From Escherichia coli (GTDB taxonomy: Bacteria; Pseudomonadota; Gammaproteobacteria; Enterobacterales; Enterobacteriaceae): 64,000 nucleotides of DNA. The notes beneath the pieces were generated by a model. The model searched no databases, had not been told where the DNA came from, and was given only the letters and a program-made list of their open reading frames with translations. Location of the stretch: the NCBI RefSeq assembly GCF_044647545.1, contig NZ_CP172818.1; one strand, given 5' to 3'. Every line of letters begins with the position of its first letter. Positions within the stretch are counted from its first letter, which is position 1. The position numbers and the translations under genes were made by a program. Of this stretch, positions 14,151-51,351 are shown piece by piece.

Positions 14151-14488
14151 CGGCGGTTCAGTTCCTGCAGAATATTCTCCAGCACCGTCTCCTCATTACA
14201 ATCAATCTCGTTATTCCAGAAACGCAGCACGGTCCAGCCCTGCGACTCAAGCCAGCTAGTGCGCCTGGAATCATAGGCAACTGCTAAATCATGCTGCCCA
14301 CCATCCAGCTCAACGACTACACGCGCCGAGCAGCAAGCAAAATCGAGAATGTAGCTCCCCACTGGATGTTGACGGCGAAATTTGAAATCACTAAAACGTC
14401 GGCTGCGAAGATATCGCCAGAGCTTTCGTTCCTGCAAAGTGAGATTGCGTCTTAAATCACGCGCATTTGATTTAATTTTATCTATCAC
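14135..14488 (-). CDS. ycjD: DUF559 protein YcjD (restriction-endonuclease-like fold), function unknown
   Basis: 117-aa ORF MIDKIKSNARDLRRNLTLQERKLWRYLR... Confidence 0.9.
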   Translation of the reverse strand: MIDKIKSNARDLRRNLTLQERKLWRYLRSRRFSDFKFRRQHPVGSYILDFACCSARVVVELDGGQHDLAVAYDSRRTSWLESQGWTVLRFWNNEIDCNEETVLENILQELNRRSPSP

Positions 14489-14555
14489 CTCATTCTGACA
14501 AGATTTAATCTTTTGTCAGAATGAGGTGAATAATCTGGAAGGAGGATTCAGAAGA

Positions 14556-17246: not shown

Positions 17247-18198
17247 ACCATTCCTTATGTTTCAGAGGGTTAGCCATGGCACCCAAAATATCAGAAATCA
17301 CGTTAACAATAATGACCAATGAGCCACACACCATCACTCCGGCGGAAATGGCTGCGTAATCCTGCTGGCGGATGGCGTTAATTAACCAGCGCCCTAAACC
17401 CGGCCAGCTAAAAACCATTTCGGTGATCATCGCCAGCGTCAGCATGGTAGAAAACTGTAAGCCCAGGCGAGGAATAACCGGAGGTAACGCGTTATGCAGA
17501 ACGTGGCGACGCAAAATAGTAAAGCGCGACAAACCGCGGGTCGCCGCTGCTTTAACATAGTTCTGGTCATACACTTCGATAGTGCTGATACGCATTAGTC
17601 GGATCACTTCAGTTGTTGGCGCAACCGACAGGGTGATCACGGGTAATATCATATGGCGGATTGCGCTCATGACCATTTCATCCCGCCACGGTGAGTCCGA
17701 AAGCCAGGCATCAATCAACGCAAAACCGGTAATCGGTTTCACTTCGTAGAGCAAATCGAAACGCCCAGAAACGGGCAACCAACCTAGCGTGAGTGAACAA
17801 AACAGCGTCAACAGAAGCGCCAGCCAGAACACCGGGATTGAAAAGCCCAGTAAGGCGATGGCGTTGATCAAGTTATCCTGCCACTTATGGCGCGTAATCC
17901 CGGCAATCATCCCCACGGGGATGCCAACAATCAGCGCAAAACCGAAGGCGAGGATGCACAGTTCCATCGTCGCCGGGAAGACCTCTTTTAACTGTTCGGC
18001 AATCGGTTGGCCGTTAATGCTGGAAACACCAAAATCCCAGTGGATCAGGCCATTAAACCAGAACACCCAGGCATTCCACAGTGACGCGCCTTGTAACGGC
18101 GCATGTGGGGTGAAATAGCTCAAGCTGAAGCCAACGAAGGTCAGCAGGAACAAGGTGACAATCAATAACAAAATACGGCGTAAGGTGAAGATAATCAT
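17233..18198 (-). CDS. sapB: ABC transporter permease SapB
   Basis: 321-aa polytopic membrane ORF overlapping sapC and sapA ends. Confidence 0.95.
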
Positions 18199-19838
18199 GG
18201 CTTTTTCACCTCATCCTGTTTCTCGCGATACACCCCAGCAAAGGAGGCGTTACCAAACGGGCTAAGTACCAGACCTTTGATATCGTACCGATAGGCCTGC
18301 AAACGCAATGACGACGCCAGCGGCAGAATAGGTAATTCCTGCGCCAGAATACTTTGCGCTTCGTCATAGGCTTCAATACGCGCCGCCAGCTGCTGCGAGG
18401 AGAGCGCCTTACGCAACACGCTGTCGAATTTCGGATCGCACCAGTGGGCGAGGTTGGTCTGTGAATGAATTGCCGCGCAGCTCAGTAACGGACGGAAGAA
18501 ACTGTCCGGGTCGTTACTGTCCGTCGCCCAACCGGATAACGTCAGATCATGGCTCATATCCATCAACCGCGCCTCCTGAAAACGACCTTCTACCGGCACA
18601 ATCACCACTTTTACGCCAACCTGTGCCATATCCGCCTGAATCAGTTCGGCGGTTTTCAGTGGACTGGGGTTCCACGCCTGCGAACGTGTGGGCACCCACA
18701 GTTTCAGCGTTAAGTTTTCCAGCCCCAACGCCTTCAACTGTTCGCGCGATTTTGCCGGATTGTATTCAGTAATTTTAGCCTCGTTGTCATAGGCCCACGA
18801 GGCGCGCGGTAAAATAGAGGCCGCCGTTTCAGCCGTACCATAATAGATGGATTGCATCAGGCGCTGGTTATTAATCGCCAGTGCCAGTGCATGGCGGACC
18901 GCCGGATTATTTAGCGGCGGTTTAGCGGTGTTAAACGCCAGATAGGCGACGTTCATCCCCGGGCGCAGCGTTAAACGCAAGCGCGGGTCGTCACGCAAAA
19001 TGGATAGCTGACTGGCGGCAGGCCAGGCCAGAACGTCGCATTCCCCGGTCAGGAGTTTCGACAGACGTCCGGTACCGCCGGAGCCTAAATCCACCACCAC
19101 CTGCGGCATTAACGGTTTGCCGCGCCAGAAGTCATCATGACGTTGTAGGCGAATAAATTGCCCGGCGCGGTATTCCGACAACTGATACGGTCCAGTGCCG
19201 ACCGGTTGACGGTCGAGTTGCTCCTGGCGATCTTCTTTCTCTAACTTCCCTGCATATTCTGCCGACATGACCGAAGCATAATGGGTCGCGAGGTGCCACA
19301 AAAAAGAAGCATCCGGCTGAGCCAGACGGAACTCAACGGTATGATTATCCAGTTTGCGGACGCTTTTCACGTTATCGGCAAATTGCAGGCTGTCGAAATA
19401 GGGGAAGTTGCTGCCATTAACGTTATGCCACGGGTTGTTGCGGTCAAAAATTCGCTGGAAGGTAAACACCACATCGTCGGCATTCATTTTACGAGTGGGA
19501 GTAAACCAGTCGGTTTTTTGAAACGGAACATCGCGACGCAGGTGGAAGCGATAGGTCGCGCCGTTGTCGAGTACTTCCCAGCTTTCGGCAAGTTCCGGCA
19601 TCAGGCGATAGGTATAGGGATCGACATCCAGCAGTCGATCATAAAACTGGGCGGCAAGGGTATCGACAATTAACCCACTGCTCGCTTTGGATGGGTTAAA
19701 GGTGTTGACTTGCCCGCTGACGCAATAGACAAAACCGCTGTCGCGGATATCAGCATGCGGGGGGGATTCAGGCGCGGCGATTGCCTGACCACTCACAAGT
19801 CCAGCAATCACCAAAAGAGACGATAATACCTGGCGCAT
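18195..19838 (-). CDS. sapA: Periplasmic substrate-binding protein SapA (peptide/opine-type SBP family)
   Basis: 547-aa ORF with signal peptide [21 protein letters not shown]. Confidence 0.95.
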
Positions 19839-20086
19839 AATATTAATGGATTTTATGTAAAGAGGCTATCTTACTAATATTTAATGACATTTGCCATTAC
19901 CGTTTGTGTTCAGGGGTCGTAATGAGGGCCGTGTGGTTGGTCGTTGAACAGGTGGCGTCGCCATCTGTTCAACATTCGTACCCGTGATTTCTCTATAACT
20001 ATAACTCACAGAACAACTTAGCGAGGAGCAGAGCGGTACGATCGTGAGAAACCCATTGAGGCACACTGCAGTGCGTGTCATTGTTA

Positions 20087-20117
20087 GCCGGATGCGGCGT
20101 GAACGCTTTATCCGGAC
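20087..20117. repeat. REP (repetitive extragenic palindrome) element
   Basis: GCCGGATGCGGCGTGAACGCTTTATCCGGAC matches the enterobacterial REP consensus. Confidence 0.8.
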
Positions 20118-20150
20118 AACGATACTGACCCATCGTCTGCAATGAAATAA

Positions 20151-20396
20151 TTACTCATTACCCCATTGATTCAAAAACTCTGCGATCTCATCAATGCGTA
20201 CGGGATTAATCCCCGCTTCAGCAGCCATTTCATGTTGGGCTTCTTCACTGATCTCTTCATTGTTCATCAAACGGGTGAGCAGTAACTGGAAGTAGTGGGC
20301 CAGCGGTGTGCGTTCAGCGTCTGCGACAGGCTCTGCGCATTCGGTCGCGTACTCATCGGCAATATCAAAATATTTTAGCGGGATATCGTGGTTCAT
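20151..20396 (-). CDS. ymjA: Small acidic protein YmjA (DUF2543), function unknown
   Basis: 81-aa [26 protein letters not shown]... Confidence 0.85.
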
Positions 20397-20529
20397 TATT
20401 TGCCCCTGGGGTTAATGCGCTAAGCATAAGGGCGGATGATAGCACTCGTGATCCGGGTCATACATCTTTTTATAGTTAATGGCGCGGTGCATTACCCTCA
20501 GCCAGGATAATGCGCCGCGCATCCGACTA

Positions 20530-23679: not shown

Positions 23680-23694
23680 AAAATATAATGACCA
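23680..23694. promoter_or_regulatory. Putative PuuR operator in puuA-puuD divergent promoter region
   Basis: AAAATATAATGACCA, close to the PuuR box as I recall it (AAAATATAATGAACA); a second similar site is at 23777..23791. Confidence 0.45.
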
Positions 23695-23776
23695 CTATTC
23701 GAATCTGTATGCAAACTAAATGTTTGTCAAATGTTAAATTGAGTTTGCAAAAATGAAAACCCGCTGCTAGATTGAA

Positions 23777-23791
23777 AAAATATTGAACATA
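23777..23791. promoter_or_regulatory. Putative second PuuR operator
   Basis: AAAATATTGAACATA, related to the site at 23680..23694. Confidence 0.4.
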
Positions 23792-23847
23792 AAGGTCATT
23801 TAAAGCGCAGTAATGGCGATAATTTAGTCCACTTTGTGAGATTGAGC

Positions 23848-24612
23848 ATGGAAAATATAATGAACAATCCGGTTATCGGTGTCGTAATGTGCAGGAACAG
23901 GCTTAAGGGTCATGCGACCCAGACTCTGCAAGAAAAGTACCTGAATGCCATCATCCACGCAGGCGGCTTGCCAATTGCGCTGCCACATGCGCTGGCGGAA
24001 CCGTCATTACTTGAACAACTTTTGCCGAAACTCGATGGTATTTATCTTCCTGGTAGTCCCAGCAATGTGCAGCCGCACCTATATGGTGAAAACGGCGATG
24101 AGCCTGACGCCGATCCCGGGCGTGATCTTCTGAGCATGGCGTTAATTAATGCCGCACTCGAAAGGCGCATCCCCATTTTCGCCATCTGCCGGGGTTTACA
24201 GGAACTGGTGGTGGCAACCGGTGGTTCGTTGCATCGCAAGCTGTGCGAACAGCCTGAATTGCTGGAACATCGGGAAGATCCCGAACTGCCGGTGGAGCAG
24301 CAATATGCGCCGTCGCATGAAGTTCTGGTTGAAGAGGGGGGATTACTGTCTGCGTTGTTACCTGAATGTAGCAACTTTTGGGTAAACTCTCTGCATGGAC
24401 AAGGGGCGAAGGTCGTTAGCCCACGGTTGCGTGTTGAAGCTCGCTCGCCGGATGGCTTAGTTGAGGCGGTTAGCGTCATCAATCATCCTTTTGCGCTGGG
24501 CGTACAGTGGCACCCGGAATGGAACAGTAGCGAGTACGCGCTTTCGCGTATATTGTTCGAGGGCTTTATCACCGCTTGTCAGCACCATATCGCTGAAAAA
24601 AAGCGACTCTGA
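23848..24612 (+). CDS. puuD: Gamma-glutamyl-GABA hydrolase PuuD (class I glutamine amidotransferase-like)
   Basis: ORF 23836..24612; start at MENIMNNPVIGVV...; 254 aa; catalytic Cys in AICRG. Confidence 0.93.
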   Translation: MENIMNNPVIGVVMCRNRLKGHATQTLQEKYLNAIIHAGGLPIALPHALAEPSLLEQLLPKLDGIYLPGSPSNVQPHLYGENGDEPDADPGRDLLSMALINAALERRIPIFAICRGLQELVVATGGSLHRKLCEQPELLEHREDPELPVEQQYAPSHEVLVEEGGLLSALLPECSNFWVNSLHGQGAKVVSPRLRVEARSPDGLVEAVSVINHPFALGVQWHPEWNSSEYALSRILFEGFITACQHHIAEKKRL

Positions 24613-49189: not shown

Positions 49190-49259
49190 GAAACCTTCCT
49201 GCTATTCAAATAGTGTCATATCATCATATTAATTGTTCTTTTTTCAGGTGAAGGTTCCC

Positions 49260-50801
49260 ATGCGTCTGGAAGTCTTTTGTGAAGACCGACTCGGTCTGAC
49301 CCGCGAATTACTCGATCTACTCGTGCTAAGAGGCATTGATTTACGCGGTATTGAGATTGATCCCATTGGGCGAATCTACCTCAATTTTGCTGAACTGGAG
49401 TTTGAGAGTTTCAGCAGTCTGATGGCCGAAATACGCCGTATTGCAGGTGTTACCGATGTGCGTACTGTCCCGTGGATGCCTTCCGAACGTGAGCATCTGG
49501 CGTTGAGCGCGTTACTGGAGGCATTGCCTGAACCTGTGCTCTCTGTCGATATGAAAAGCAAAGTGGATATGGCGAACCCGGCGAGCTGTCAGCTTTTTGG
49601 GCAAAAATTGGATCGCCTGCGCAACCATACCGCCGCGCAATTGATTAACGGCTTTAATTTTTTACGCTGGCTGGAAAGCGAACCGCAAGATTCGCATAAC
49701 GAGCATGTCGTTATTAATGGGCAGAATTTCCTGATGGAGATTACGCCTGTTTATCTTCAGGATGAAAATGATCAACACGTCCTGACCGGTGCGGTGGTGA
49801 TGCTGCGATCAACGATTCGTATGGGCCGTCAGTTGCAAAATGTCGCTGCCCAGGACGTCAGCGCCTTTAGTCAAATTGTCGCCGTCAGCCCGAAAATGAA
49901 GCATGTTGTCGAACAGGCGCAGAAACTGGCGATGCTAAGCGCGCCACTGCTGATTACGGGTGATACCGGCACCGGAAAAGATCTCTTTGCCTACGCCTGT
50001 CATCAGGCAAGCCCCAGAGCGAGCAAACCTTACCTGGCGCTGAACTGTGCGTCTATACCGGAAGATGCGGTCGAGAGTGAACTGTTTGGTCATGCTCCGG
50101 AAGGGAAGAAAGGGTTCTTTGAGCAGGCGAACGGTGGTTCGGTGCTGTTGGATGAAATAGGGGAAATGTCACCACGGATGCAGGCGAAATTACTGCGTTT
50201 CCTTAATGATGGCACCTTCCGTCGGGTTGGCGAAGACCATGAGGTGCATGTCGATGTGCGGGTGATTTGTGCTACGCAGAAGAATCTGGTCGAACTGGTG
50301 CAAAAAGGCGTGTTCCGTGAAGATCTCTATTATCGTCTGAACGTGTTGACGCTCAATCTGCCGCCGCTACGTGACTGTCCGCAGGACATCATGCCGTTAA
50401 CCGAGCTGTTCGTCGCCCGCTTTGCCGACGAGCAGGGCGTGCCGCGTCCGAAACTGGCCGCTGATCTGAATACTGTACTTACGCGTTATGCGTGGCCGGG
50501 AAATGTGCGGCAGTTAAAGAACGCTATCTATCGTGCACTGACACAACTGGACGGTTATGAGCTGCGTCCACAGGATATTTTGTTGCCGGATTATGACGCC
50601 GCAACGGTAGCCGTGGGCGAAGATGCGATGGAAGGTTCGCTGGACGAAATCACCAGCCGTTTTGAACGCTCGGTATTAACCCAGCTTTATCGCAATTATC
50701 CCAGCACGCGCAAACTGGCAAAACGTCTCGGCGTTTCACATACCGCGATTGCCAATAAGTTGCGGGAATATGGTCTGAGTCAGAAGAAGAACGAAGAGTA
50801 A
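49260..50801 (+). CDS. tyrR: Transcriptional regulator TyrR (ACT-PAS-AAA+-HTH)
   Basis: ORF 49233..50801; start at internal ATG (MRLEVFCEDRLGLTRELLDLL...) giving 513 aa; AAA+ and GAFTGA-like region. Confidence 0.96.
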   Translation: MRLEVFCEDRLGLTRELLDLLVLRGIDLRGIEIDPIGRIYLNFAELEFESFSSLMAEIRRIAGVTDVRTVPWMPSEREHLALSALLEALPEPVLSVDMKSKVDMANPASCQLFGQKLDRLRNHTAAQLINGFNFLRWLESEPQDSHNEHVVINGQNFLMEITPVYLQDENDQHVLTGAVVMLRSTIRMGRQLQNVAAQDVSAFSQIVAVSPKMKHVVEQAQKLAMLSAPLLITGDTGTGKDLFAYACHQASPRASKPYLALNCASIPEDAVESELFGHAPEGKKGFFEQANGGSVLLDEIGEMSPRMQAKLLRFLNDGTFRRVGEDHEVHVDVRVICATQKNLVELVQKGVFREDLYYRLNVLTLNLPPLRDCPQDIMPLTELFVARFADEQGVPRPKLAADLNTVLTRYAWPGNVRQLKNAIYRALTQLDGYELRPQDILLPDYDAATVAVGEDAMEGSLDEITSRFERSVLTQLYRNYPSTRKLAKRLGVSHTAIANKLREYGLSQKKNEE

Positions 50802-50806
50802 GCGTG

Positions 50807-50841
50807 AATATGCCTGATGGTGCAACACCATCAGGCATATT
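50807..50841. terminator. Hairpin between convergent tyrR and tpx
   Basis: Perfect 16-bp inverted repeat AATATGCCTGATGGTG / CACCATCAGGCATATT with 3-nt loop. Confidence 0.65.
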
Positions 50842-50844
50842 AAC

Positions 50845-51351
50845 TTATGCTTTCAGTACAGCCAGAGCTGCTTCGTAATCCGGCTCGGTGGTGATTTCAT
50901 CCACCAGCTGGCTGAAAATCACATTGTCATTTTCATCAATAACCACAACGGCACGCGCTGCCAGACCTTTCAGTGGGCCATCAGCAATTGCCACACCGTA
51001 GGCTTGCAGGAATTCAGCGTTACGGAAAGTGGAGAGGGTGATAACGTTGTTCAGACCTTCTGCGCCGCAGAAACGAGACTGGGCGAATGGCAGATCGGCA
51101 GAGATACACAGCACAACGGTGTTGTCGATCTCGGTTGCCAGTTGGTTAAACTTACGTACTGATGCGGCGCAAACACCGGTATCAATACTCGGGAAAATGT
51201 TCAGCACTTTGCGTTTACCCGCAAACTGACCGAGGGTGACGTCAGACAGATCTTTTGCCACGAGAGTAAAAGTCTGCGCTTTGCTACCCGCCTGCGGGAT
51301 GGAATTGGCGACTGTAACCGGGTTGCCCTGGAAATGAACGGTTTGTGACAT
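50845..51351 (-). CDS. tpx: Thiol peroxidase Tpx
   Basis: 168-aa [25 protein letters not shown]... Confidence 0.96.

Follow-up and report, generated by a model that had tools for sequence, protein, structure and literature searches.

A single-copy stem-loop in the ymjA-sapA spacer of Escherichia coli probably defines a leaky transcript 3' end

In the general model, stem-loops mark the processed 3' ends of Rho-dependent transcripts. In this work, we describe a near-perfect palindrome lying in the spacer between ymjA and sapA, within 64,000 nucleotides of E. coli DNA (hereafter, the window); as RNA of the sapA/ymjA strand, it is probably a stem-loop setting or protecting a leaky 3' end of the transcripts which start at the ymjA promoter and at a distal sapA promoter, P2. 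As in the stem-loops described by Dar and Sorek (2018, PMC6061677), a stable hairpin devoid of a U-tract is found just before a mapped 3' end, and is accompanied by C-rich, G-poor sequence after it and by partial read-through; a role of Rho may be supposed here as well. Unlike them, the palindrome is followed by a short C-rich tract, and the Rho-dependent regions defined by the bicyclomycin data of Adams et al. (2021, PMC7815308) include neither sapA nor ymjA, although low expression could mask such a region.

With intrinsic terminators, the palindrome shares a stem-loop containing G+C pairs and a 3' end falling a few nucleotides past its base. Lacking a U-tract after the stem (tail GACCAACCAC / GACCAACCACACGG), however, it does not qualify as a canonical intrinsic terminator: T-runs are absent past the palindrome on both strands, and a simple promoter/terminator consensus scan of positions 19600-20500 returned zero terminator sites. 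A preliminary description of this DNA, made from the sequence alone, had already set aside an intrinsic terminator for this reason; it did not foresee that the palindrome coincides with a transcript 3' end.

Like the REP/BIME elements which stabilize mRNA 3' ends, the palindrome is intergenic, transcribed and potentially able to block 3' exonucleases, and a true REP is located 110 nt upstream of it. The two elements are distinct, as first described: the palindrome does not resemble the REP consensus, and none of the matches of a Rfam 15 covariance-model scan (E ≤ 10) overlaps 19943-19973, while the REP region gives a naRNA4/REP-like match at 20060-20117 (E = 0.1, below the gathering score). 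The palindrome is moreover found in one copy per genome, and membership of a repeat family was rejected on this basis. Finally, the entries available from TRS (2023, PMC10687069) classify its 3' end as a premature one within the sapA 5' UTR, a type of end also reported by Adams et al. (2021, PMC7815308). For the palindrome, neither a ligand nor a leader peptide nor a function as an sRNA is known, which sets it apart from leader attenuators and 5'-UTR-derived RNAs, and most sapA transcription bypasses it, since the main promoter, P1, is located downstream.

Table 1. Features of the ymjA-sapA spacer and flanking genes, in window coordinates
Feature	Position	Strand	Description and basis
sapA CDS	18195..19838	-	ATG at 19838
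Proximal sapA promoter (P1)	19861..19896	-	start 19861 (K-12 1357133); SMRT-Cappable-seq, alignment, sequence
Upstream ORF	AUG 19964-19962, stop 19883-19881	-	27 codons, MATPPVQRP...
C-rich, G-poor tract	19901..19950	-	directly past the hairpin; base counts
RNA 3'-end cluster, K-12	19929..19942	-	TRS on RNAtag-seq, entries available
Palindrome	19943-19973	+	31 bp, GTTGAACAGGTGGCG-T-CGCCATCTGTTCAAC; read from sequence
Palindrome as sapA/ymjA-sense RNA	19943..19973	-	GUUGAACAGAUGGCG-A-CGCCACCUGUUCAAC
Distal sapA starts (P2)	19986..19991	-	Kim 2012, 19986 (.2 coordinate 1355282); SMRT-Cappable-seq, 19991 (K-12 1357263)
Putative P2 -10 hexamer, TATAGT	19998..20003	-	-12 to -7 relative to start 19991; sequence and alignment
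REP element	20080..20123		inverted repeat; downstream of ymjA, separate from the palindrome
ymjA CDS	20151..20396	-	window ORFs, K-12 comparison
ymjA transcription start	20427..20429	-	Kim 2012, SMRT-Cappable-seq

The palindrome is made of two 15-nt arms separated by 1 nt; 14 of the 15 arm positions pair (93%), which confirms the initial reading. One position escapes Watson-Crick pairing: the + strand has G.T there, the sapA/ymjA strand A.C. The sense RNA is predicted to fold into a 14-bp stem with a 3-nt loop, one A.C mismatch and one pair opened by the loop; G-C pairs are 8 of the 14 Watson-Crick ones, so that the stem is not notably G+C-rich. For the window haplotype, the predicted energy of the 31-mer alone is -17.1 kcal/mol in the sense orientation and -21.2 kcal/mol on the + strand; within a 51-nt context these values become -21.0 kcal/mol (z = -4.0) for the - strand and -25.2 kcal/mol (z = -5.1) for the + strand. 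Compared with shuffled sequences, the E. coli sense-strand hairpin is stable, with z between -4 and -5.

Arms paired at 14 or more of 15 positions, with a loop of at most 10 nt, are found at just three places across the window; first-order Markov simulations of a 64-kb window contain on average 0.04 such palindromes, and 3.5% of the simulations contain any. When a 401-bp query (window 19800-20200, 100% identical to E. coli FDAARGOS_497) was searched in complete E. coli genomes, the palindrome region was found in 5421 of 5426, once in each, with a median of one palindrome place per genome; the two places scored by the perfect haplotype solely reflect its match to itself on either strand. At BLAST sensitivity, E. 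coli genomes contain neither a second copy nor a similar site. Of the 5425 places matching the spacer, seven sit on plasmid-labelled records.

Published K-12 maps were transferred to the window by subtracting 1337272 from NC_000913.3 coordinates, the aligned stretch being free of indels. Mapped starts and promoter hexamers together establish the order, on the - strand, of ymjA, REP, P2, palindrome, C-rich tract, P1 and sapA. The position of the sapA ATG places the palindrome 105-135 bp upstream of it, in agreement with the first account; it lies about 180-210 nt past the ymjA stop.

P2 is documented by the sole sapA start of Kim et al. (2012; PMC3415461, Table S1), which rests on 2 reads and implies a 148-nt leader, and by a SMRT-Cappable-seq start (PMC6131387) for a sapABC transcript. 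These starts precede the stem by 13-18 nt, and the palindrome spans +19 to +49 of the P2 transcript. The hexamer TATAGT, which aligns with TATATT in Citrobacter and ends 7 nt before the start at 19991, is the putative P2 -10 element. P1 features a -35 TGGCAA (19896-19891), a 17-nt spacer and a -10 TAAGAT (19873-19868), with the start 7 nt past TAAGAT; SMRT-Cappable-seq (PMC6131387) reports this start for sapA and sapABC transcripts. The ymjA start is covered by 94 reads in Kim et al. (2012; PMC3415461;.2 coordinate 1355723, equal to.3 coordinate 1357699), and SMRT-Cappable-seq (PMC6131387) lists starts at 1357699 and 1357701 for ymjA-sapA and ymjA-sapA-sapB transcripts (operons b1295-b1294 and b1295-b1294-b1293), which traverse both REP and palindrome and reach sapA and sapB. 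In RpoD genomic SELEX, RNA polymerase holoenzyme binds within the ymjA-sapA spacer, no other protein being shown there.

Both P2 transcripts and ymjA read-through transcripts thus cover the palindrome, which lies downstream of P2 and upstream of P1. The preliminary description had envisaged an RNA structure in the sap leader: this agrees with the published maps for RNAs starting at P2 or at ymjA, while the position upstream of the main promoter had not been anticipated. As a separate observation, the block 19861-19905 (-), which holds P1, is almost invariant between Escherichia and Citrobacter and also contains an imperfect dyad, TAATGGCA-AA-TGTCATTA; this dyad is a better candidate than the palindrome for a conserved operator.

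The 3' end is found in TRS (PMC10687069, Supplementary Data 3), whose available entries include a - strand peak at 1357201-1357214 in K-12 MG1655 in LB, with the dominant position at 1357206, corresponding to window 19934. The signal is 0.60, and adjusted p values in the three libraries are 2.6e-4, 6e-12 and 1.9e-10. The fold listed for this terminus is exactly the palindrome hairpin, with a longest U-run of 2. Since the stem ends at K-12 1357215, RNA 3' ends fall 1-14 nt past it, with the peak at 9 nt; these ends were measured in the K-12 haplotype, which differs from that of the window. Among the TRS entries listed, no 3' terminus is assigned to ymjA, which makes the 1357206 end the sole one downstream of ymjA there. 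The Term-seq supplements of Adams et al. (2021, PMC7815308) contain no 3' end entry for either sapA or ymjA. An RNA running from P2 to the mapped 3' end would measure about 53-58 nt. The 3' end was hence already present in a published supplementary table; we found no dedicated description of the element.

Each 40 nt of the tract directly past the hairpin include 17-18 C and just 5-6 G, and at the homologous place a C>G bias is seen in 12 of 13 aligned Citrobacter and Lelliottia sequences. It is possible, from its composition, that the tract serves as a Rho-loading region, for which its length of just 45-50 nt or so is short.

These elements can be combined as follows. The palindrome, transcribed on the sapA/ymjA strand between the weak P2 and the main P1, would fold as a stable stem-loop, and RNAs from P2 and from the ymjA promoter would acquire their 3' end shortly past the stem. 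Most likely, transcription would stop within or after the C-rich tract, possibly by the action of Rho or by a hairpin-assisted process requiring no U-tract, and 3'-to-5' exonucleases would trim the RNA back until blocked by the hairpin. Such a stop must be leaky, because part of the transcripts read through into sapABC. The expected outcome is a protected 3' end for ymjA mRNA and, for P1 and sapA, a partial insulation from transcription arriving from upstream.

The hairpin would then account for the layout of transcripts near sapABCDF, an operon for putrescine export and antimicrobial-peptide resistance, with its two promoters, the read-through from ymjA and a leaky 3' end in between. The four natural hairpin strengths found in E. 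coli, of 12 to 15 pairs, would in addition provide a series for gauging how stem stability affects 3'-end formation in the absence of a U-tract. In other respects, the palindrome is an ordinary structural element of restricted lineage.

Conservation was analyzed in 80 Enterobacteriaceae sapA loci, 77 of which from outside E. coli. ymjA adjoins sapA in Escherichia alone. Two types of sapA upstream regions are found. In the first, seen for example in Salmonella, Enterobacter and Kluyvera, a different leader begins directly or shortly after the pspF stop or, in some loci, after another gene. The second shares with E. coli a homologous stretch of about 220 bp; it includes Escherichia, most Citrobacter and one Lelliottia, with the K. 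oxytoca group and Raoultella as more distant members. None of the 77 loci from outside E. coli contains the dyad TTGAACA-N-TGTTCAA, so that the conservation across Enterobacteriaceae for which the preliminary description had suggested looking is lacking. In the alignment, GTTGAACAGATGGCG, the left arm read in sapA sense, stands opposite GTTGACCAGGTCGCG of Citrobacter; a palindromic counterpart of the right arm is lacking. The homologous segments of two other Escherichia species and of all Citrobacter and Lelliottia have z scores from -1.7 to +0.6 relative to shuffled sequences, and neither E. whittamii nor another Escherichia species nor Citrobacter has a strong hairpin at that place. A hairpin conserved despite sequence turnover was therefore discarded, as the predicted folding of the segments of Citrobacter and other Escherichia does not surpass that of shuffled sequences. 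Gene content between pspF and sapA differs as well: E. coli has ymjA and the puu cluster there, Citrobacter (C. braakii locus L015, 128-2187) a qnrB-like pentapeptide-repeat gene together with an ORF of 107 aa on the opposite strand.

Within E. coli, four haplotypes are common, each making up about 14-32% of the records. The window haplotype pairs at 14 of 15 positions (1662 complete-genome records, by exact 37-mer) and the perfect one, found for example in O157:H7, at all 15 (745 records); the K-12 haplotype has 13 pairs and, in the sense RNA, an additional G.U (by subtraction, about 1700 records), and the S8 haplotype 12 (about 1280 records). A rare strain, N96, retains 10 of 15. At the K-12 variant position, the pair is kept as G.U in the sense RNA and becomes an A.C mismatch on the + strand. 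Differences between haplotypes are non-compensatory. The sense-strand stem is nevertheless predicted at -11 to -22 kcal/mol across haplotypes; stem values of -14 to -22 kcal/mol are found in three of the four common ones, the S8 stem being the remaining case (-11.2 kcal/mol sense, -14.0 antisense). Given that haplotypes with 12 to 15 pairs are all common, any function of the palindrome should be dispensable or tolerant of weakening. From these comparisons, the hairpin appears to be young, specific to the E. coli lineage and loosely constrained.

These same data fit a neutral origin, and it is possible, if rather unlikely, that the palindrome is a mutational by-product with no selected role, the 3' end being an incidental effect of a stable hairpin; at the molecular level this reading and that of a 3'-end stem-loop overlap. 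Template switching in replication tends to perfect imperfect inverted repeats, which point mutations degrade; quasi-palindromes acting as template-switch hotspots in E. coli have reportedly been studied by Ripley and by the Lovett laboratory. As in such hotspots, variants of the palindrome differ at pairing positions, and one derived change perfects the repeat; in comparison with them, the mutational mechanism is here a supposition, and the direction of change is partly resolved. Besides the non-compensatory haplotypes, a neutral origin is suggested by the confinement of the palindrome to E. coli and its closest relative, and by the two arms: E. coli, E. whittamii and a third Escherichia species share one and the same left arm, and their right arms diverge exactly where pairing is decided. 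T at right-arm position 11 of E. coli is considered derived, because G is found in all other aligned sequences except Escherichia sp. MOD1-EC7003, a close relative which shares the T, and the perfect haplotype results from one derived C-to-T change completing the dyad. Strain N96 (L094) carries four clustered changes in right arm and loop (GACGCC to GAAACC, TGTTCA to TGAACA), which look like one multi-base event rather than independent point mutations. The palindrome would thus be a fluctuating element, resembling a quasi-palindrome prone to template switching. On the other side, each common haplotype retains a stable predicted stem, the reproducible 3' end, as given in the available TRS entries, is a molecular consequence, and the direction of change is ambiguous at two of the four interspecies differences, where E. 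coli agrees with Citrobacter and the other Escherichia may instead have lost pairing.

The preliminary description had also considered the operator of a dimeric regulator, which, with the dyad centre at about +33 of P2 and about -97 of P1, could act as a roadblock for the former or from far upstream on the latter. We regard this as improbable. The near-perfect symmetry and the vicinity of two sapA promoters are compatible with it, but the absence of the dyad from all 77 loci outside E. coli, an outcome which the preliminary description had itself named as refuting, led us to reject a conserved operator, and the dyad is polymorphic within E. coli itself. Usual operators are far shorter than a contiguous 31-bp dyad. 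The half-site TGTTCAAC, for which a genome-wide search had been proposed as a check, occurs in the window no more often than expected by chance; the E. coli genomes contain no similar site at BLAST sensitivity, and no report of transcription-factor binding at sapA was found in the searchable literature.

A specific candidate is PuuR, encoded by the neighbouring puu cluster, whose 15-mer motif AAAATATAATGAACA, said to come from Nemoto et al. 2012, has a TGAACA core in common with the palindrome. Searched with up to 3 mismatches, this motif hits three sites between puuA and puuD and none at 19943-19973, and the palindrome was discarded as a PuuR site; matches in the window are 7, against 1.9 expected. 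The three copies in the puuA-puuD spacer (23680-23866, with 0-2 mismatches) are presumably PuuR sites. Motifs of matS, the PhoP box and IHF, judged by eye, do not fit the palindrome either.

Another reading, to which we give very little credit, sees in the sapA distal leader an attenuator of recent origin, specific to E. coli and under the control of translation and Rho, with the hairpin as one half of it and a proline-rich upstream ORF of 27 codons as the other. The AUG of this ORF lies inside the 5' arm of the hairpin and its frame spans the C-rich tract: its translation would open the hairpin and cover up the Rho-loading site, and without translation the transcript would end before sapA. 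Ribosomes on the ORF would then set how much upstream transcription enters sapABCDF, and a tuning by polyamines might be envisaged, because SapBCDF exports putrescine. The C-rich tract and the 3' end are both in place, both E. coli and E. whittamii keep the frame open, and 11 of the 13 Citrobacter and Lelliottia leaders have a homologous ORF starting with ATG, which differs from Escherichia by third-position-biased changes and by a 12-nt in-frame indel. However, E. coli has ACG at the position of the Citrobacter ATG, and the internal AUG, devoid of a Shine-Dalgarno sequence, is enclosed in the stem. In Citrobacter the length of the ORF ranges between 7 and 28 codons, another Escherichia species has a truncated version of it, and the K-12 annotation contains no small protein here. 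Its conserved 3' part has no synonymous variation, which indicates a constraint on DNA or promoter rather than on coding. The Citrobacter and Lelliottia ORF reads MN.DQVAMLN... (L015, 2420-2458, and other loci); its counterpart in the window is 19981-19881 (-), where the E. coli frame stays open to the TAA at 19883-19881 despite the ACG start.

An action on the + strand, as an antisense RNA structure, is the most improbable reading: the window-haplotype RNA does pair at 15 of 15 positions on that strand (one G.U) and is predicted to be more stable than the sense RNA, but K-12 has an A.C mismatch there, the strand offers neither a U-tract nor a promoter-like site, and every mapped start, like the mapped 3' end, belongs to the - strand. 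RNase III sites usually need roughly two helical turns; the stem, of 14-15 bp, is shorter, and hence an unlikely substrate.

Two other palindromes of the window were noted near gene ends. A near-perfect one at 14488-14526 is the hairpin with which the sap operon ends and, like the ymjA-sapA palindrome, has no U-tract on the sap strand; the available TRS entries list a primary sapF terminus at K-12 1351749. A perfect palindrome of 15-17 bp, ATATGCCTGATGGTGCAACACCATCAGGCATAT, at 50805-50843, fills the 43-bp gap between two convergent ORFs, 49233-50801 (+) and 50845-51351 (-); free of T-runs, it is probably a 3'-end hairpin shared by the two and working in both directions.
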